64,000 nt of DNA from a virus (taxonomy: Duplodnaviria > Heunggongvirae > Uroviricota > Caudoviricetes): the IMG/VR virus record IMGVR_UViG_2690316121_000006. One strand, written 5' to 3'. Under the pieces are notes generated by a model. That model did not search any database. It was not told where the DNA came from and worked only from the letters and a program-made list of their open reading frames with translations. Shown piece by piece: positions 31,455 to 52,747 of the stretch. Within the stretch, counting starts at the first letter, position 1. The number at the start of each line of letters is the position of its first letter. Both the position numbers and the translations under genes were made by a program.

Positions 31455-32255
31455 TTAGCGCGTAGCTGCGACAGGTACCAGCACACCAGCATCAAGCAAT
31501 CGCTTCATTAGCCACTGCTGACCTTTGCCGGTTATACGAGTCGTGAAAGAAATCCTGCTTCCGTTGCTTGTGTCGATCACGGTTTCTTTGAGGGTGAAGT
31601 ACCCACGGGATATGTATTCTTGTTTGGGGACGTTCCTGCGTTCACCGGTTGCGATCAGAATTCCGTTATCACGCAACCAGGTGAAGAGATAGTTTTGGCC
31701 CAGGCCGAGCACTTTGGCATAGTTGCCGATTAGAACCCCGCTGGCGGTAGCAACGCGTTCGGCGAATTCGACTTTAGGTGCATCCATAAGCATTTTTTGC
31801 TCCAGCCGTTGCTTTTGCTCTGCCAGGTCGGCAGCCAAACGGAGAGCTTCAGGGAGACTCTGCGGAATAGCAGGTTGTAATCTTCCGGCTCGATAGTCGA
31901 TAAATGTCTGGTTTACCTTCAGCCGAAATGCGGGAGAAATCCAGCCTGCGTACTCCACAGCGAGCAATTCATGGGCAAAAGTGCCGCCGCCACGGCCTTC
32001 GAACGAAACTATGCACTTCTGCATAGTTTCTTTTTCAAGCTCTTCGATGAGCTGTTTGGCTGACAGCGTTCTTAGCCATTGAGCTGGCGCTTTATGGGCA
32101 CCGAGTCCGCTCGCTCTGTGTAGAGCATTAAGGTTGTAACGGCCAGCGCGGTCGGTCGTAATTTCAACACCACAAATAACAGGCAGAGTGGTTGAAGGAT
32201 CGACATTTTGATGAAGGTTTGATATATTCATATCCGCATTGAATGTTTGTTGCAT
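31455..32255 (-). CDS. kilA: KilA: KilA-N domain plus Ant/Bro-C-like C-terminal domain
   Basis: 266 aa; C-terminal 120 aa paralogous to C-terminus of the ant ORF; downstream of a C1 operator. Confidence 0.6.
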   Translation of the reverse strand: MQQTFNADMNISNLHQNVDPSTTLPVICGVEITTDRAGRYNLNALHRASGLGAHKAPAQWLRTLSAKQLIEELEKETMQKCIVSFEGRGGGTFAHELLAVEYAGWISPAFRLKVNQTFIDYRAGRLQPAIPQSLPEALRLAADLAEQKQRLEQKMLMDAPKVEFAERVATASGVLIGNYAKVLGLGQNYLFTWLRDNGILIATGERRNVPKQEYISRGYFTLKETVIDTSNGSRISFTTRITGKGQQWLMKRLLDAGVLVPVAATR

Positions 32256-32324
32256 TTTTTCTCCAAATTTGCATCAACCTTCAATCACCAGCTCGAAATG
32301 GTGATTCTTTGCACTTAGAAAACG

Positions 32325-32341
32325 AAATTTATTAGAGCAAA
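32325..32341 (-). promoter_or_regulatory. C1-repressor operator (1 mismatch) upstream of kilA-repL
   Basis: plus strand AAATTTATTAGAGCAAA. Confidence 0.55.
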
Positions 32342-32419
32342 TTTTTCTGACTCGATCCAGATCGGGTTGGACGATCTGCTCAGAAACCTGCCAGTTTGCT
32401 GGCAGGTTTTTTTCTTTTG

Positions 32420-33463
32420 TTAACCTATTGCTACTGGTTTTAACAAACCAGCATCAAGTAGCTTGCGAGTTAACCACTGCTGGCCTTTACCCGTTAATTG
32501 TGGCGTCAGCCGTATCTGATAGCCATTTTCATCATCCAGCACCACTTCTTTCACCGTGAAATACCCGGCGTTAATGTACTGCTGGCGCGGTACGTTTTTG
32601 CGCGCACCAAAAGCCATGAGAATGCCGTTCTGGCGCAACCATGAGAAAAGGGCGTTTTGCTTAAGTCCAACGACCTTTGCAAAGTTACCGATCAGGATTC
32701 CATTAGCCACTGATACCCGGTCGGCAAAATCGACTTTAGGTGCTGCGGCCACCAGCTGTTGTTCCAGATGCATTTTCTGTTCTGCCAACTCGGCAGCCAG
32801 GCGTAGGGCTTCTGGTAATGTTTGGGGGATCGATGGGGTAGGGGAGTTTGCCTGCTGTAATTCTTCCAGTTTGTCGATCAGCGAACGGCGGACCGCTTTT
32901 GACTCGCGCGCGGCGACTCGCAGGGCTTGTTTGTAGGTCATGGTTATGACCTCAAAAGAGCGCCCGGCCCTTGTGCCATGGGATTTTACGAAAGTTTCGT
33001 AAAATTCCCCATCAAGTTCATCCTTAATTCTATTGAGAAAATCGTTATTGCGGATCTCATTTTCCCCACATAGCTTGCGCGCATCATTAACCATCTTTAA
33101 CAGCGTCTGGCTGTCGATTGTGTCTCCAGTGTTGGAGATAACATTCACAGCTGGTGATGGCGTAGCTGACGTAACAGGTGCTGTTTTTTCAACATTCAAA
33201 TTATTACCGGTCATTCTATGTGCCTCCTTTCTCATTTCTGCTGCCACTGTTGCGTAACGTAGACGTCCTTGTTCAATCAAATAATCCCTGATCTCGGCTA
33301 TCAGTAGCTTGTTGATCACAGCCTTATCTGTTCGGGTATAAAAACGTCTGGTTATCATGAAATAGTTGGCAATTGCGCCGGGGATCTCCCGTGTCGGCAT
33401 ACAGATTGTATGCAAGGCGATCGCTTCGGCTATTTCATTACGGGTGACGAGAGGTGTTTTCAT
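32420..33463 (-). CDS. ant1: antirepressor Ant (immI)
   Basis: 347 aa; C-terminal Bro-C/KilAC-like domain; preceded by icd-like ORF and c4-like region. Confidence 0.6.
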   Translation of the reverse strand: MKTPLVTRNEIAEAIALHTICMPTREIPGAIANYFMITRRFYTRTDKAVINKLLIAEIRDYLIEQGRLRYATVAAEMRKEAHRMTGNNLNVEKTAPVTSATPSPAVNVISNTGDTIDSQTLLKMVNDARKLCGENEIRNNDFLNRIKDELDGEFYETFVKSHGTRAGRSFEVITMTYKQALRVAARESKAVRRSLIDKLEELQQANSPTPSIPQTLPEALRLAAELAEQKMHLEQQLVAAAPKVDFADRVSVANGILIGNFAKVVGLKQNALFSWLRQNGILMAFGARKNVPRQQYINAGYFTVKEVVLDDENGYQIRLTPQLTGKGQQWLTRKLLDAGLLKPVAIG

Positions 33464-45679: not shown

Positions 45680-48600
45680 ATGAATGACGTTACAGTTGTC
45701 ACATCGGTTACTTACCCATCACCCGAGTCGTTGGCTCTGGTGGCTGATGTGCAATACCACGAACCATATCTGTCAGCCGCGCTAAACCGAAAATTCAGGG
45801 GGATTGTTGACCCGGGATTTTATGCCGGTTTCTTACCTAAGCCTGGCGGTGGGATGAACCTGTTAATCACCTCAGTGGATGGTGATAAAACCGCAGGCGC
45901 GGCGTCGGTGGATATTGGTGAATTCTACCAGGTAACTATTCAGCAACGTAAGGATATTTCTCTTGCACTTAGTGCAGGCAAGAAATATGCAATTGTGCTG
46001 AAGGGAAGATACCTCCTTGGAGAAGATACCTATCAGGTGAATACCGCGTCACATATTCATGCGGCTGAATTTGTTTCCAGAACCTATACCGATTCATATC
46101 AGTTAGGAGATGGGGAGCTGCTTGTTTGTACGGTGAATATCCCTGCTGGTGTATCTGCCATTACCCAGGAGATGATTGATACATCCGAGCGTATTAACCG
46201 CACGATCGGCATTGATATTTCAGACTCTGTAACCAGTAGCAGAAGTGATGTTGCGGCAAGTTCGCTGGCAGTTAAAAAAGCCTACGATCTGGCGAAAAGT
46301 AAGTATACGGCGCAGGATGCAAGCACAACGCAAAAGGGATTAGTTCAGCTCAGTAGCGAAACTAACAGCGACAGCGAAACAATGGCTGCTACCCCTAAAG
46401 CAGTTAAGTCTGTAAAAGATCTTGCTGATACCAAAGCGCCAATAGAAAGCCCGAGTCTGACAGGAACGCCAACCGCGCCGACGGCAGCGCAAGGTACAAA
46501 TAGCACGCAGATCGCAAATACAGCCTTTGTTAAGGCAGCTATAACGGCACTTATCAACGGCGCACCTGGCACACTGGATACGCTTAAAGAAATAGCTGCT
46601 GCGATCAATAACGACCCGAATTTCAGCACAACTATCAACAATGCTCTGGCTCTTAAAGCTCCTTTAGCAAGTCCTGCATTAACGGGAATACCTACTGCGC
46701 CTACCGCTGCACAGGGTACGAATAACACGCAGATTGCTACGACCGCTTATGTAAGAGCTGCCATATCCGCATTGGTTGGTTCATCACCAGAAGCTCTTGA
46801 TACCCTGAATGAGCTTGCCGCAGCACTTGGTAATGACCCTAACTTTGCGACAACAATGACAAATGCGCTGGCAGGCAAACAGCCTCTGGATGCAACTTTA
46901 ACCGCGCTTGCTGGTCTTGCTACAGGTGCAAATAAATTGCCGTACTTTACCGGTACAGACACTGTTTCTCAGACTGACTTAACGTCAGTCGGTCGCGATA
47001 TTCTGGCCAAAACAAGCGTCCTTGCTGTTATCCAATACCTTGGTTTAAGAGAACTCGGTACCAGCGGTGAAAAGATCCCCCTGTTGAGCACGGCTAACAC
47101 ATGGAGTGCACGCCAGACTTTCAACGGCGGGATCACCGGGGCGCTGGCAGGGAATGCCGACACCGCGACGAAATTGAAAACAGCACGCTCGATTGGCGGT
47201 GTGGCATTTGATGGCTCGGCCAATATCAATCTTCCAGGTGTAAATACAACAGGTAACCAGAACACCACGGGGAATGCTGCTACCGCGACAAAACTTGCGA
47301 CGGCAAGAAACATCAACGGTGTTAAATTTGATGGTTCTGTGGACATTTCGATACCAACAATTACGTCCAGAGGGCGTGTTACTGCGCTCACCGGTACAAC
47401 ACAAGGTGCTGCTACTGGATTGCAAATGTATGAGGCGTACAACAACGGCTATCCTTCTGCTTACGGGAATGTGCTTCATCTTAAGGGCGCAACGGCAGTT
47501 GGTGAAGGTGAGTTGTTCATAGGTTGGAGCGGTACAAGTGGCGCTCATGCACCTGTACATGTACGTTCGCGACGAGATACTGATACAGCCAGTTGGTCAG
47601 AGTGGGCGCAGGTCTACACATCGAAGGATTCCATCCCTGGTGTAAATACCACGGGCAACCAGAACACAACCGGAAACGCGGCGTCTGCAACGAAATTACA
47701 AACGGCAAGAACTATTGGTGGTGTTTCATTTAATGGCACCGCAAACATCGACCTGCCGGGCGTGAATAAAACAGGCAATCAGAGCACTACCGGCAATGCA
47801 GCTACAGCCACAAAACTGCAAACAGCACGCACCATTAATGGGGTTTCATTTGACGGAACGGCTAATATTTCGCTGTCACCGGCAAATATTGGTTGCCCGG
47901 CATCTCCTACTGGTTGGCTTGAAACAGGTGATAATGGAGCATCAATAACAACAGAGCAATTAGTGACTCTGCTACGAGATAATGGTGCTTTTAATGCAAA
48001 GGTATGGATAGCGCGTTGTGCTTGGGCGTATGCAAATAGTGCATCCATACCAGACAGCGAAACAGGATGCGGCATTATTCCACTGGCTGGCGCAGTTATT
48101 GAGGTGTTTAATAACGGCAGTAGCTCAAACAATTATACGATTCGTATAACAACGGCAACAACGACAAGCGTTTCTGGCGCACTCACTAATGCGGAGTTTG
48201 TCTATGTGTTTAACGGGACGAGCTATTCACCAGGATGGCGCAGAGCGTATAACACTAAAAACAAACCTACTGCGGCTGATGTCGGAGCTTTACCACTATC
48301 TGGAGGAGCGTTAACTGGCGGATTAACTGCTGCTGGCGAGATTATTTCCAAATCGGCGAATGGTCTTCGTATTGCCTATGGCAACTATGGATTCTTTATC
48401 CGAAACGATGGTTCAAGCACATACTTCATGTTGACCGCCTCGGGTGACAATCTTGGAACATGGAATAGTTTAAGACCGCTTACCATTAACAACGCCAACG
48501 GGGCTGTTTCAATCGGTAATGGACTCAATGTAACTGGCGATATAAGAACCAATGCATGGGTATATGCAAACAGATTTTCTGTTAATAGCAGCTCAGGTTC

Positions 48601-49093
48601 TTGGATTAGTATGCGAGATCAAAATGTTATTTTTGGTCTTAATAAGGTATCAACCAGTTCCGCCCAGGCATTATTAAGACAAGACCATGCTGACAGAAAG
48701 TTCTTTATTGGTGGTCTTGGTAATAGTCAATTCGGCTTTTACATGATTAACAACTCAAGAACAGCAAATGGTACAGATGGCCAAGCATTTCTTGATAGCA
48801 GTGGTAACTTCCAGTGCGGCAGGCAAATACTTCCAGCTAACTATAGTAATTTTGACTCGCGCTACGCATTAAAAACGGCTTGTGTGACAAGCGTAAGAAT
48901 GGGATCTGCTGCCAGTTATAAACCATCAAGCAATGGTGTTTCCTGGACTCAGAATCTAGGAAGCGGACTGGTTATGACAGGTATTATTGTTCAAGAAACA
49001 GGAAGTAATTCAGCTGACAATATCGGTGGTATTTATTATCGACCGGTTCAATATTGTATCAATGGAACATGGTACACAGCAGCATCAGTATAA
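45680..49093 (+). CDS. tail fibre protein: constant N-terminal part plus currently expressed variable C-terminal part
   Basis: about 1137 aa from ATG at 45680; repeated PGVNTTGNQNTTGNAATATKL and ALKAPLASPALTGIPTAPTAAQGTN units; 3' third lies inside the invertible segment. Confidence 0.8.
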   Translation: MNDVTVVTSVTYPSPESLALVADVQYHEPYLSAALNRKFRGIVDPGFYAGFLPKPGGGMNLLITSVDGDKTAGAASVDIGEFYQVTIQQRKDISLALSAGKKYAIVLKGRYLLGEDTYQVNTASHIHAAEFVSRTYTDSYQLGDGELLVCTVNIPAGVSAITQEMIDTSERINRTIGIDISDSVTSSRSDVAASSLAVKKAYDLAKSKYTAQDASTTQKGLVQLSSETNSDSETMAATPKAVKSVKDLADTKAPIESPSLTGTPTAPTAAQGTNSTQIANTAFVKAAITALINGAPGTLDTLKEIAAAINNDPNFSTTINNALALKAPLASPALTGIPTAPTAAQGTNNTQIATTAYVRAAISALVGSSPEALDTLNELAAALGNDPNFATTMTNALAGKQPLDATLTALAGLATGANKLPYFTGTDTVSQTDLTSVGRDILAKTSVLAVIQYLGLRELGTSGEKIPLLSTANTWSARQTFNGGITGALAGNADTATKLKTARSIGGVAFDGSANINLPGVNTTGNQNTTGNAATATKLATARNINGVKFDGSVDISIPTITSRGRVTALTGTTQGAATGLQMYEAYNNGYPSAYGNVLHLKGATAVGEGELFIGWSGTSGAHAPVHVRSRRDTDTASWSEWAQVYTSKDSIPGVNTTGNQNTTGNAASATKLQTARTIGGVSFNGTANIDLPGVNKTGNQSTTGNAATATKLQTARTINGVSFDGTANISLSPANIGCPASPTGWLETGDNGASITTEQLVTLLRDNGAFNAKVWIARCAWAYANSASIPDSETGCGIIPLAGAVIEVFNNGSSSNNYTIRITTATTTSVSGALTNAEFVYVFNGTSYSPGWRRAYNTKNKPTAADVGALPLSGGALTGGLTAAGEIISKSANGLRIAYGNYGFFIRNDGSSTYFMLTASGDNLGTWNSLRPLTINNANGAVSIGNGLNVTGDIRTNAWVYANRFSVNSSSGSWISMRDQNVIFGLNKVSTSSAQALLRQDHADRKFFIGGLGNSQFGFYMINNSRTANGTDGQAFLDSSGNFQCGRQILPANYSNFDSRYALKTACVTSVRMGSAASYKPSSNGVSWTQNLGSGLVMTGIIVQETGSNSADNIGGIYYRPVQYCINGTWYTAASV
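48397..48422. other. candidate cix-like crossover site inside the tail fibre gene
   Basis: ATCCGAAACGATGGTTCAAGCACA resembles Gin/Cin sites; marks start of a roughly 100-bp inverted repeat shared with 50820-50949. Confidence 0.45.
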
Positions 49094-49104
49094 TGAGAGA
49101 GCAT

Positions 49105-49620
49105 ATGAATAACTTTAAAAATTTCGCACCATATACGCCAGGCGAAGATAAAAGAGAGCTTGTTGATGCAGGAGTTTTATTCCTGTTGGATGAAAACGGT
49201 AACGACTGGTATGAATGTCAGAAGTTATTTTCGGAATGTACAAAGGTAATTGCGTATGATAGCAACAACATCGTTGTCAGCATTACAGATGATGTCTCAA
49301 CCCTTTGGCCCATAGGATTATCTGTAGCAGAAGTGGATGGTTTACCTGAAGATGTAGATATCAACGGTGGTTGGGTGTTTAGAGACAACTCTGTTGTTAA
49401 ACGCATATATTCTGATACGGAGTTACAACAGCAAGCTGAATCAAAAAAGGCCGCCTTGCTTTCACACGCCGAATCAGTAATTGTAACTCTTGAGCGGGCG
49501 GTTAAATTGAATATGGCAACAGATGAGGAACGAGCTAAACTGGAAGCATGGGAGCATTATAGCGTGTTGGTTTATCGCGTAGATACAGCTAAACCAGAAT
49601 GGCCAGAAGAACCGGAGTGA
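49105..49620 (+). CDS. tail fibre assembly chaperone (Tfa / U-like)
   Basis: 171 aa from ATG at 49105; paralog of the minus-strand ORF 49652..50209. Confidence 0.6.
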   Translation: MNNFKNFAPYTPGEDKRELVDAGVLFLLDENGNDWYECQKLFSECTKVIAYDSNNIVVSITDDVSTLWPIGLSVAEVDGLPEDVDINGGWVFRDNSVVKRIYSDTELQQQAESKKAALLSHAESVIVTLERAVKLNMATDEERAKLEAWEHYSVLVYRVDTAKPEWPEEPE

Positions 49621-49621
49621 A

Positions 49622-49650
49622 GTGAAGGCCCGATTTATCGGGCCTTCACT
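49622..49650. terminator. bidirectional hairpin between convergent chaperone genes
   Basis: GTGAAGGCCCGAT..ATCGGGCCTTCAC perfect stem followed by TTTT. Confidence 0.55.
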
Positions 49651-49651
49651 T

Positions 49652-50209
49652 TTAACCTGGCTCAGTAGGCCAGACGATCGCATTGAAACTGGCTTTATCT
49701 GTTATTGTGTTGAAATCTAATGCATTAACTGCATCAATATAGTCCAGCCAGGCGTCAAGAGAAGACTGTTCATCTTCAGATAATATTCTGCCGCGTAGTA
49801 ATTTTGTCTGGCTAATCACGAGTTGTTGACGTGCGTTGTTAAGTAGCTCAGTGCGTCTTGATTCCGCCATAGCTTTTAACTCATCTGCGGTTCTTACTCT
49901 TTCAACCACATTTTTTCCGTCAAACATCCAGTTCCCGTTAATATCTACTCCATCAGGCAGGATTTCTATTTCTGCTACAGATGCTCCCACTGGCCAGAGT
50001 GTTGAAACATCGTTTGAAATACTCACAACAATATTATCGCTGTCATAAACTATCTTTATCGTGTTCTCATGAAAAAATTTCTGACATTCATACCAGTCAT
50101 TACCGTTTTCATCACGTAAAAATACAACTCCTGCTTCAACAAGCTCTGACTTATCTTCATCTGGGGTGTAGGATGTGAACTTTTTAAAATTAATCATCGT
50201 TTGATCCAT
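49652..50209 (-). CDS. alternative tail fibre assembly chaperone (U'-like), silent orientation
   Basis: 185 aa; shares NFKKFTSYTPDEDK...ENGNDWYECQK with the plus-strand chaperone. Confidence 0.6.
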   Translation of the reverse strand: MDQTMINFKKFTSYTPDEDKSELVEAGVVFLRDENGNDWYECQKFFHENTIKIVYDSDNIVVSISNDVSTLWPVGASVAEIEILPDGVDINGNWMFDGKNVVERVRTADELKAMAESRRTELLNNARQQLVISQTKLLRGRILSEDEQSSLDAWLDYIDAVNALDFNTITDKASFNAIVWPTEPG

Positions 50210-50215
50210 TAATAA

Positions 50216-50917
50216 TCATGCTGTGGCTGCTGTATACCAAGTTCCATTAATGCAATACTGTAAAGGCCTCAATCTTGCTGGGTCGTCACCATCAACTTCA
50301 CCAATAATCCCAAGCCCTGTAATGACATAGCCAGCAGTTTCAAACATCGTGCCTTTCTGCATGGTATGAGTTTTATATGCCCCAAGTCTGACGCTAGTCA
50401 CACAAGCCGTCTTTAATGCGTAGCGCGAGTCAAAATTACTATAATTAGAGGGGGACACCTGACCATTTACAGCAAATGTTATACTGTTATCAGTATTTCT
50501 CTGACTATAAAAATGCCATCCTGAATCATCACCTAATTCAGCTACAACAGGACGAGTAGAGGCACCCCATAGATTAAAGGTTACGTTCTTAGTGGATGTG
50601 TTTGAACTTGATAATGAAAAAGTTTTACTATCTCCGACCAGCAATTTTTTTAAAGAAAAAGCTGCATCATTCTTAAAGCGGAATACTCGCTGACTATTAG
50701 CGTAAACATCAAGAATGCCATCACCATTCTGTTTAAAACCAGTATCATTATCGCCAAGGACGATAGAGTTACCACCAAGAGCATTTGCAGTACCCAGACC
50801 AACAGAACCATAAACAGTTAAACCATTACCGATTGAAACAGCACCATTGGCGTTGTTAATGGTAAGCGGTCTTAAACTATTCCATGTTCCAAGATTGTCA
50901 CCCGAGGCGGTCAACAT
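50216..50917 (-). CDS. alternative tail fibre variable C-terminal segment (Sv'-like), expressed only after inversion
   Basis: N-terminal 33 aa identical to the fibre segment encoded at 48421; conserved C-terminal QYCINGTWYTAA. Confidence 0.65.
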   Translation of the reverse strand: MLTASGDNLGTWNSLRPLTINNANGAVSIGNGLTVYGSVGLGTANALGGNSIVLGDNDTGFKQNGDGILDVYANSQRVFRFKNDAAFSLKKLLVGDSKTFSLSSSNTSTKNVTFNLWGASTRPVVAELGDDSGWHFYSQRNTDNSITFAVNGQVSPSNYSNFDSRYALKTACVTSVRLGAYKTHTMQKGTMFETAGYVITGLGIIGEVDGDDPARLRPLQYCINGTWYTAATA

Positions 50918-50923
50918 GAAGTA

Positions 50924-50949
50924 TGTGCTTGAACCAAGGTTTAGGATTG
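50924..50949. other. candidate cix-like crossover site next to cin
   Basis: reverse complement reads ATCCTAAACCTTGGTTCAAGCACA, similar to the site at 48397-48422. Confidence 0.45.
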
Positions 50950-51501
50950 AAATGATGACGCCGGAAACTTCTTATAAAGCGTGGAAACAGCCACATCATA
51001 GATGATTGCAACCTGCTTACGGGGGATGCCCTTCTCCAGCAATCGCCGCATTTGCTGCAATGTTTCTTCTTGGTATTTAGGCCGACGCCCACCTATACGA
51101 CCTTCTGCGCGAGCTGCATCAAGTCCAGCGCGTGTACGTTCAACGATAAGCTCACGTTCCATTTCTGCCAGCGCCCCCATTACGTGAAAGAAAAAGCGCC
51201 CCATTGGTGTACTGGTGTCGATGGAGTCAGTGAGACTCCGGAAGTTAATGCCTCTGTCACGCAGCTCTTCCACCAGCACAACTAAGTGACGCATGCTGCG
51301 CCCAAGACGGTCTAACTTCCATACGACCAGGGTATCACCTCTGGAAAGCATACGGAGTACCTTTTTTAACCCAGGGCGCTCAGCCTTTTTGCCGCTCGCC
51401 TTGTCCTCAAAAATTAGCTCACATCCTGCGCTTTCAAGAGCATTTCGTTGTAAAGCAGTGTTTTGTTCATTTGTTGATACGCGTACATAGCCTATTAGCA
51501 T
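50941..51501 (-). CDS. cin: serine DNA invertase (Cin/Gin/Hin/Pin family)
   Basis: 186 aa; N-terminal MLIGYVRVSTNEQNTALQ with catalytic Ser; C-terminal HTH; adjacent to invertible segment. Confidence 0.85.
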   Translation of the reverse strand: MLIGYVRVSTNEQNTALQRNALESAGCELIFEDKASGKKAERPGLKKVLRMLSRGDTLVVWKLDRLGRSMRHLVVLVEELRDRGINFRSLTDSIDTSTPMGRFFFHVMGALAEMERELIVERTRAGLDAARAEGRIGGRRPKYQEETLQQMRRLLEKGIPRKQVAIIYDVAVSTLYKKFPASSFQS

Positions 51502-51628
51502 ATTTTCTGCTCACTATCGTTATTTATAGCAAGCTGCGGATTTTAATTAACAAAAACCTGTGTGTGTGGAAATCACAAAGTACATACCGTTTCCCAATGA
51601 TATTTAATTCACTATTAAGGAAATAGTT

Positions 51629-51910
51629 ATGTGTGATTTCACAATAATGCTCCTCTCTATCCTTGGCGGGGTGCATTCGTTTCTGAATGGGGTTCGTGAA
51701 AAACGTTACGAAGCGTCATGCAGGCAATTGATGGCCGAGTGTATTGCTGCCGTACTTGCAGGCTTTATAGGCATGTATTTCGCGGAATATAAGGGTATGG
51801 ATGAAAGTCTTCAGAATTGCGTGACTATTATTTGCAGCATCAATAACAGGCTCATTCTTGAAAAGTTACAAAGGATTATCGATTCGTACCTCAATAGAAA
51901 TGCCTCTTAA
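51629..51910 (+). CDS. holin-like small membrane protein (paralog of next gene)
   Basis: 93 aa; LLSILGGVHSFLNGVREKR...AAVLAGFIGMYFAEYKG aligns with the following holin ORF. Confidence 0.45.
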   Translation: MCDFTIMLLSILGGVHSFLNGVREKRYEASCRQLMAECIAAVLAGFIGMYFAEYKGMDESLQNCVTIICSINNRLILEKLQRIIDSYLNRNAS

Positions 51911-51977
51911 GCAACAAATGACCGGTTGAGAAGTTACTTTGCATACCATTACCTCCTGACAACGTAGGAGGGAACTT

Positions 51978-52307
51978 GTGCTTGACACACAGGAATTAGC
52001 TCCAGTTGCTATTGCGCTCCTGCTTTCAGTAATTGGTGGGATAGGCACGTTCCTGATGGATGTCCGAGACGGTCGCCAGTCTGGCAATTTGTTGGGATTG
52101 GTTACGGAGATCTTTGTTGCAGTGACAGCTGGCGCGGTGGCGTACCTATTGGGGCAACACGAGGGCTGGGAGTTATCAATTACGTACTTAATGGTAACGA
52201 TAGCCAGCAATAACGGTCATGAGGTGATTTCAGGGATGAAACGAGTGAATATCGATAGCATTCTGAATGTTCTTACAAGTTTGGTGAAAAAGGGAGGCGG
52301 GAAATGA
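51978..52307 (+). CDS. holin (LydA-like)
   Basis: 109 aa with two or three TM segments; upstream of Dar-like operon as in P1. Confidence 0.5.
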   Translation: MLDTQELAPVAIALLLSVIGGIGTFLMDVRDGRQSGNLLGLVTEIFVAVTAGAVAYLLGQHEGWELSITYLMVTIASNNGHEVISGMKRVNIDSILNVLTSLVKKGGGK

Positions 52308-52747
52308 TTGGCTGGGGTGTATGCGTTCTTGCGTTAGCCTTAGCCGATCGCTATTTGCTAAAACGCAAGGACATCACGCATTTAGAACTTGGTGATGTGG
52401 AAATTAAACCGGGTTTCATCCGGGTGCCGTTCAAGTACCGGTCTAAATTCCCGTTTTTGCGCGGCGCAACGGTCAGATATTGGATCCGCGATGTTCAGAA
52501 GCCGACGACAGTGATTGAAGGTGAACAACGTTGTCTGACGTCGGCTGAACAGGGCGAAAACAGTGAATGGTTGTACATACCCACTGAATATATGGGTAAA
52601 GGAGAGCGACTGTGGCATTTCAACGTCATGGTTACGCATGGCGACTCGTTCATTAACCCGTTGTATCGCATTTTCCCTGTTACTCAGCAAATCCGCAGAA
52701 GTTACGTAATAAATCTCGCACAGGATGTGTCAGATGACGAAAAATAA
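52304..52747 (+). CDS. holin-associated protein (LydB-like position)
   Basis: 147-aa ORF whose start overlaps the holin stop. Confidence 0.35.
   Translation: MIGWGVCVLALALADRYLLKRKDITHLELGDVEIKPGFIRVPFKYRSKFPFLRGATVRYWIRDVQKPTTVIEGEQRCLTSAEQGENSEWLYIPTEYMGKGERLWHFNVMVTHGDSFINPLYRIFPVTQQIRRSYVINLAQDVSDDEK

Follow-up and report, generated by a model that had tools for sequence, protein, structure and literature searches.

A three-site tail-fibre locus with a hybrid Cin crossover site in a P1-like plasmid prophage

Switches that exchange phage tail-fibre tips by DNA inversion have long been known from the C segment of phage P1, the G segment of phage Mu and the Min system of p15B, and the multi-site version of such a switch is not new either. 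The Mu G segment presumably has only two sites, which lie in 34-bp repeats. Six crossover sites served by one invertase, with variable fibres, were reportedly found in p15B Min by Sandmeier et al. in 1990-92, and three crossover sites under one invertase are said to have been found by Tominaga et al. in 1991 in the pinB B segment of Shigella boydii. A p15B-like region of 5 kb is present in a P7-like plasmid (PMC5786510). The locus described here is found in the IMG/VR virus record IMGVR_UViG_2690316121_000006 (Caudoviricetes), of which a stretch of 64,000 nucleotides, referred to as the window, was analysed. It comprises a tail-fibre gene (S), two alternative fibre tips (Sv and Sv'), their assembly chaperones (U and U'), a serine invertase gene (cin) and three crossover sites, termed A, B and C* (Table 1). 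On balance it is probably the C-segment equivalent of a P1-like prophage and a deletion derivative with a hybrid site, in which inversion between B and C* is impaired and A and C* are matched in their cores. Its distinctive features are the three-site deletion derivative, the hybrid site and a one-base core difference that alters the matching partner.

The relationship to phage P1 is close. A gap-free match of 99.5% identity extends over 50928-52500 and spans cin, lydC, lydA and lydB, while positions 45788-47184 of the fibre gene share 95.3% identity with P1 S (45788 is the first base of the P1 stretch compared). The contig of a P1-like plasmid of 96,997 bp (GCA_049931785.2) matches the window at 100% over 14.6 kb, and the near relatives are IncY plasmids of Escherichia coli and E. 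fergusonii from pig, poultry and human samples. Judged from these matches, the region around the switch is part of a P1-like plasmid prophage. It shares with the P1 C segment the gene order S, U, U', Sv', cin, lydC and the flanking genome. In contrast, its tips and chaperones have, at the DNA level, either no relation or just a weak similarity to those of P1, and it has an extra shaft segment, a third site with an AT core (B) and a hybrid cin-proximal site. The two segments also differ in size. A preliminary description, made from the letters of the window, had put the segment at about 2.5 kb and given 4.2 kb with 0.6-kb repeats for P1, and both figures held: the segment measures 2528 bp from core to core with a 0.13-kb repeat, and that of P1 4256 bp (4.26 kb) with repeats of about 0.6 kb. 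Compactness, to which the same description had drawn attention, is ordinary, because prophages of E. coli EC958 have segments of 2.1-3.1 kb, with 26-bp sites, mirror-image cassettes and repeats of 36-508 bp (PMC4134206). Unlike the present locus, the EC958 prophages are chromosomal and have two sites each, with matched cores.

Crossover sites were located with a 26-bp half-site score and by direct comparison with the annotated cixL and cixR of P1, the P1 annotation being carried to the window by a constant offset. A loose scan for AAACCNNGGTTT with up to two mismatches gave 38 matches against 34 expected; it was uninformative and was replaced by the half-site score. A, B and C* each consist of two 12-bp imperfect inverted half-sites around a 2-bp core. 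Site A lies inside the fibre gene, 1.37 kb upstream of the inverted repeat, and its counterpart is the left partner of the outer inversion in the pRHB13 plasmids described below. The cores of B-type sites are AT in all copies examined, including 12 of 12 in nine IMG/VR loci. Like cixL in P1, site C* shares bases with the final codons of cin; transferred by offset, P1 cixL falls at 50927-50946, with the crossover at 50936/50937. The inner half of C* is of the type found in B', the second B-type site of these plasmids, its core and outer half are those of P1 cixL, and the junction between the two lies at the 2-bp core. In the reading direction of the fibre gene, A and C* have TT cores and B has AT, and the repeat-flanked pair B/C* differs at one core position. 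Matched cores, as in Din-family systems, are present in A/C* (TT/TT) and in the B/C* pair of sister plasmids (AT/AT), but not in B/C* of the window. The upstream site A, the hybrid nature of C* and the unequal cores of B and C* had all been missed in the preliminary description.

Plasmids with four sites place the hybrid site in context. A single pooled sample of pig faeces yielded isolates RHB13-C01, -C02 and -C03, which share one 95,217-bp plasmid whose fibre gene has a different length in each isolate, and pairwise comparison of these pRHB13 plasmids shows that they differ by two clean inversions. The outer inversion, of 5.76 kb (2720-8476 of the fibre locus), has 152-bp repeats and is bounded by exact copies of P1 cixR and cixL, whose cores are TT in sense (cixL is written AA on the + strand). 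The inner inversion, of 2.68 kb (4493-7174), has 191-bp repeats and AT cores in both of its boundary sites, which are B and B', the exact reverse complement of B. The order of the four-site locus is Sc-A-X-B-(tips and chaperones)-B'-Y'-C-cin, where Sc is the constant N-terminal part of the fibre and X and Y are alternating shafts. This layout gives two shafts times two tips under one invertase, and of the four isomers that shafts X and Y and tips Sv and Sv' allow, three have been seen for the plasmid. No description of a core-based separation of two nested inversions was found in the literature searched. The sites of the window form two core-dinucleotide classes, which should limit pairing.

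The window matches the four-site IncY systems (pRHB13-C01/C02/C03 and IMG/VR contigs) piecewise at 97-98%, in the A, B and outer-C sequences, the Y shaft, the tips and the chaperones; for example, window 47030-48522 corresponds, inverted, to 8476-6984 of locus L003 at 97.7% identity. It differs in the missing shaft X and the hybrid junction: the four-site systems have their own second shaft X, a separate B', an intact cixL, two matched pairs and four isomers, whereas in the window X has been lost and B' is fused with C. Since the junction lies exactly at the core, the window presumably arose by site-specific recombination between B' and C, a deletion between sites that lie in direct orientation. 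In such an event, the left half of B' (top-strand core AT) would be joined by a 2-bp stagger to the right half of C (bottom-strand complement of AA), giving a T-T heteroduplex. Replication of this heteroduplex would yield exactly an AT and an AA form, through one event or two for the lineages concerned, and the AT and AA forms of the hybrid site that are found in nature appear to be the two segregants expected of a staggered-cut heteroduplex.

Two further records touch on these relatives. The RefSeq assembly of E. coli M37H lists NZ_CP092241.1 (L014) as linear "plasmid p9" of 2,588 bp; the record consists of the inner invertible segment, flanked on either side by B-type sequence. It is almost certainly no replicon but the assembler's contig for the alternative orientation, and this separate 2.6-kb contig was counted as evidence of flipping in culture. 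In CP099081.1, a more distant P1-like plasmid, remnants of A and B lie 177 bp apart (4838-5040 of locus L013) and there is one fixed fibre gene of 1138 amino acids (aa). It was considered as a natural short fusion and rejected, being a locked mosaic with no intact cin (almost none is left); it is an instance of module reshuffling.

The AT form of the hybrid site is found in two sister plasmids with the three-site layout, NZ_CP062890.1 and CP066198.1 (IncY, Quebec pig faeces), which are approximately 98% identical to the window. In both, the hybrid right site reads GAACC AT GGTTT, with a core equal to that of B, and the AA of the window differs from it only at position 50937. NZ_CP062890.1 is collinear with the window, while CP066198.1 has exactly window 48398-50947 inverted, such that the sisters show both orientations. 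The AA core is not an error, because three other records have it too. An ENA metagenome contig (L017) does not differ from the window in the 1.3 kb aligned and agrees with it in the cores of A, B and C*; a Logan contig (L016) has the AA core and stops 29 nt past it, where k-mers become common to the other repeat arm, and is therefore uninformative on tip orientation; and a metagenome contig (ERZ1026890 NODE-270, L012) is 98.8% identical. GCA_049931785.2 and L017 have the orientation of the window. Both orientations are seen in the sisters and the four-site relatives, compared with one orientation and one ambiguous contig in the window lineage, which has three crossover sites against the four sites, and three of four isomers, of the relatives.

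The cassette beside cin in L012 (5549-6231 of that contig) has an unusual structure, in which the N-terminal and middle parts of Sv are joined at the internal repeat I3 to the C-terminus of Sv'. Because of this change of tip from Sv to the C-terminus of Sv' at I3, and because the contig stops at that point, L012 was rejected as a clean inverted isomer. The hybrid tip could result from gene conversion between the inverted cassettes, from a double event or inversion, or from a chimera in metagenome assembly.

Homologous recombination by RecA across the 134-nt repeat, independent of Cin and of the cix cores, is a very improbable source of these inversions. The 90 nt of perfect identity within the repeat would be enough for rare RecA-dependent exchange, yet repeats this short recombine very rarely by RecA, and the block inverted between the sisters ends exactly at the crossover sites. 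Moreover, the repeats of the four-site plasmids reach about 76 bp beyond the sites and the cores are nevertheless matched, and the whole Cin apparatus is conserved.

The Cin protein of the window is identical to P1 Cin in 185 of 186 residues, with W148L as the sole change, and its gene is 99.3% identical at the DNA level. As expected of a Din-family serine DNA invertase, it has Resolvase and HTH_7 domains (Pfam, 2.8e-51 and 1.8e-17), and residues 1-182 align with Gin structures (E = 2e-87). The catalytic serine, which if disabled would have refuted the preliminary description by its own terms, is intact: Ser9 aligns with the active-site position of Gin, which is Ala in the S9A structure 3uj3. 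The enhancer is identical to the annotated P1 enhancer at 71 of 72 nucleotides and is found at the same place within cin, which fits the cis-acting, Fis-dependent element of Din-family systems. The W148L codon (51058-51060) lies in the DNA-binding domain. Tryptophan is present at this position in P1, pRHB13 and CP066198.1, and among the records checked W148L is confined to the window lineage; every L148 contig found also has the AA-core hybrid site. Residue 148 varies within the family, being Q in one solved Gin construct and presumably also at the equivalent position of Hin.

Serine invertases cut both sites with 2-nt overhangs, after which a rotation of 180 degrees takes place. Cin, together with the enhancer, would act on the 26-bp cix sites and invert the DNA between them, and inversion would join the constant part of S to one of two tips, each with its own chaperone; religation would need paired 2-nt overhangs. 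An AA/AT core combination blocks inversion by Hin in vitro (PMC4817059). Because the overhangs of B (AT) and C* (TT in sense) mismatch, the B x C* flip is probably strongly impaired in the window lineage. Natural plasmids agree with this core rule. A junction of A to the tip module was found in no record with at least 80% coverage, either in the plasmid collection (410 partial matches) or in 5,426 complete E. coli genomes, although many of those records carry both TT and AT pairs and both matched inversions are seen.

The preliminary description had read the locus as an invertible switch. The Cin-family invertase and the two orientations in the sisters agree with this, but with the mismatched B/C* cores of the window the flip is probably impaired. 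A simple two-site switch, in which Cin flips the 2.5-kb B/C* segment at a normal rate, the core difference matters little in vivo and site A is ignored, therefore seems unlikely. It would fit the intact state of both tips, both chaperones, cin and the enhancer, and exactly this segment is the one inverted between the sister plasmids. However, the sisters that flip have AT/AT, whereas the window sets AT against TT in sense, the same combination that stops Hin. Cross-pair products were not found in the many natural plasmids surveyed above that carry TT and AT pairs, and site A is an exact copy of P1 cixR that is active in relatives.

Sites A and C* share their core and have the relative orientation of cixR and cixL in P1, and both half-sites of C* function in relatives. 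The predicted A x C* inversion (47041-50936, 3.9 kb) would bring Sv' directly into frame behind Sc and produce a fibre of 693 aa, with U' as the next gene. The tip of this fusion starts at profile position 91 of 116 of the Gp34_trimer domain, without the first three quarters of the domain, which occupies aa 835-936 of the present fibre. Natural short Sv'-type fibres (e.g., the 523-aa P0009) keep about 100 residues, including the whole domain, between the cix-encoded VIEYLG and the tip. Because these homologues keep the domain that the fusion truncates, the 693-aa fibre is likely defective. The fusion protein itself was not found in searches, in which the best matches cover 92-93% of the query but hold about 100 extra junction residues. 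A degenerate pattern that covered the hybrid site or the product of A x C* had no match in viral_contigs, none in genome_contigs and one in metagenome_contigs.

Several points weigh against a locus in which B x C* is impaired and A x C* is matched. The core rule was measured for Hin in vitro, and not for Cin on these sites. Iida and Hiestand-Nauer reportedly observed, in 1986 and 1987, a low-frequency recombination by Cin in vivo between sites whose cores are mismatched, accompanied by local core conversion. At least one mismatched event is implied by the hybrid site, and B x C* is therefore slowed, not impossible; a rare mismatched event could also repair the core mismatch. L012 has a C* with a TT core in sense adjoining Sv-type repeat bases, which could reflect a B x C* inversion and would also fit the simple two-site switch. 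All relatives that demonstrably invert have Cin W148, while the window has W148L. Finally, no inversion product of either kind was found for the window lineage, in which GCA_049931785.2 and L017 have the same orientation and L016 breaks within the repeat.

The last two points would also fit a frozen remnant in which nothing inverts meaningfully, B x C* being blocked by its cores and A x C* being absent through a weak Cin W148L, a weak inner half of C* that pairs poorly with A, or loss of the products. All resolvable records of the lineage (GCA_049931785.2 and L017) are in one orientation, W148L occurs in this lineage only, and the Logan contig runs 29 nt past the core without an earlier branch, as if there were no abundant A x C* variant, judging from the assembly k-mer size. 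With two or three samples only, however, a shared orientation could be due to chance. All reading frames are intact, the half-sites of C* each work in relatives, the enhancer is almost that of P1, and residue 148 is Q in the Gin construct. Such a remnant seems unlikely, and the preferred reading is still that of a hybrid-site derivative with an impaired B x C* and a core-matched A x C*.

A more specific form of the preferred reading is possible, and is put forward tentatively. The A in place of T at base 50937 may re-pair the cin-proximal site from B (AT) to the upstream cixR (TT), and thereby turn a tip switch into a 3.9-kb toggle between a full-length and a truncated fibre. The AT and AA forms may be segregants of one heteroduplex that record a Cin deletion across mismatched cores, and the core dinucleotides may be an addressing code that keeps the nested shaft and tip inversions independent under one invertase.

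Table 1. Features of the tail-fibre locus. Positions are those of the window, except in the last row, where they are those of the plasmid records.
Feature	Position	Strand	Details
Fibre gene S, present assembly (Sc, shaft Y, tip Sv)	45680-49093	+	1137 aa; open reading frame, ATG; Pfam Phage_fiber_2 and Gp34_trimer
Sc, constant N-terminal part (about 453 aa)	45680-47039	+	P1-like, 95.3% identity
Site A	47028-47053	+	TTATCCAATACC TT GGTTTAAGAGAA; core 47040-47041; identical to P1 cixR
Shaft Y	47054-48395	+	Alternates with a different shaft X in four-site relatives
Site B	48396-48421	+	TTATCCGAAACG AT GGTTCAAGCACA; core 48408-48409, palindromic AT; outer end of left arm
Inverted repeat, left arm	48398-48531		Encodes common start of both tips
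Sv, tip now expressed (227 aa)	48410-49093	+	Mu/D108 S-type; homology to D108/Mu S
Internal inverted repeat I3	48837-48903, partner 50382-50448		91%; encodes shared NYSNFDSRYALKTACVTSVR motif
U, tail-fibre assembly chaperone for Sv (171 aa)	49105-49620	+	Pfam Caudo_TAP, E = 1e-28; start and stop verified
Hairpin between convergent U and U'	49620-49651		15-bp perfect stem; inverted-repeat search, fold
U', chaperone paralog for Sv'	49652-50209	-	185 aa, or 181 aa from second ATG at 50197; Caudo_TAP, E = 2e-21
Sv', silent alternative tip (239 aa, without own start)	50216-50935	-	Open from crossover core to stop
Inverted repeat, right arm	50814-50947		Partner of 48398-48531
Site C*, hybrid	50924-50949	+	TGTGCTTGAACC AA GGTTTAGGATTG; core 50936-50937; outer end of right arm
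cin, serine DNA invertase (186 aa)	50941-51501	-	Pfam Resolvase and HTH_7
Recombinational enhancer, inside 5' end of cin	51412-51483	-	P1 annotation coordinates transferred over the gap-free 99.5% match
pRHB13 fibre loci (L003, L007, L010)	24870-32530		CP057851.1, CP057856.1, CP057845.1

The arms of the inverted repeat are 134 nt long and 93% identical. The longest perfect stretch is 90 nt (48409-48498 and 50847-50936), followed by a perfect run of 20 nt, and a perfect inverted repeat of 90 nt cannot be explained by chance in 64 kb. The arms had earlier been placed at 48421-48520 and 50820-50917, with about 72 bp perfect and about 100 bp in all. This repeat is real and lies inside the true one, but it was drawn too small, and the outermost 25 bp or so, which carry the 26-bp crossover sites, were missed. 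The repeat is shared coding sequence just inside the crossover sites, and recombination acts on the 26-bp site located at the outer end of the repeat.

The components listed in the preliminary description, namely a chaperone, an inverted chaperone paralog, an alternative tip and a Cin-family invertase, were all recovered from open reading frames, Pfam matches and the comparison with P1 Cin. Two fibre C-termini, each with a Tfa/U chaperone, are arranged as mirror images and are in frame with the constant N-terminal part, as seen from the open reading frames, their frames, the Caudo_TAP matches and the homologues. The hairpin is placed exactly between the stop codons of U and U'. It has a folding energy of -31.7 kcal/mol (z = -7.2), is followed by UUUU on the + strand and is likely a transcription stop, which, because it lies inside the invertible segment, would end the fibre operon in either orientation.

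Sv and Sv' share 39 aa counted from the crossover, which correspond to the 33 aa counted from an internal Met in the preliminary description. The motifs NYSNFDSRYALKTACVTSVR and QYCINGTWYTAA near the C-terminus are also common to both, and the middles are unrelated in sequence, again as described earlier. The internal repeats I2 and I3 were considered as additional crossover sites and rejected, as the half-site scan found no cix-like sequence in them; they reflect conserved coding. When the tips were aligned, as had been suggested as a check, Sv shared 55-60% identity with the S tips of phages D108 and Mu, and likewise with the fibre of RCS47, a P1-like phage. Sv' shares 69% identity with the fibre of Yersinia phage Tongde and 44-46% with fibres of small (32-38 kb) Escherichia phages, and it is homologous to the 523-aa prophage fibres. 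The Mu G segment with Gin resembles the locus in mechanism and layout, in the S tip of Mu and D108 (about 55% identity to Sv) and in the alignment of Cin with Gin structures, but it belongs to a different genome.

Identity between the chaperones U and U' is 68% in the first 100 aa and drops to 28% in the remainder. A passage of PMC9608196 that summarises North et al. (2019) reports that Tfa's N-terminal domain binds the distal fibre. A common docking end would fit both the C-terminal motifs that the tips share and the N-termini that the chaperones share, and this part of the preliminary description is plausible on sequence grounds.

Two further observations concern the fibre gene. Within shaft Y, positions 47150-47868 hold four copies of a module of 77-113 nt, spaced by 120, 402 and 120 nt and 65-73% identical, which encode repeats of the type GN..TATKL.TAR.I.GV.FDG..NI. 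Several long open reading frames (up to 171 aa) run antisense to the fibre gene on the minus strand at 46340-48132. They are most likely by-products of the repetitive and biased coding composition of the fibre, and not genes.

P1-like phage-plasmids commonly carry resistance genes in E. coli, and their host range is determined by invertible tail-fibre switches. For annotators and assemblers, several isomers and stray 2.6-kb contigs are to be expected from these plasmids. The window and its sisters are a natural experiment, in which near-identical plasmids differ by one base of a crossover core, and in the relatives the TT and AT core classes keep two nested inversions apart under one invertase. 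If the reading given here is true, the locus would show the core dinucleotide deciding site pairing in the wild, and would show the decay or rewiring of a switch through rare recombination between unmatched sites.

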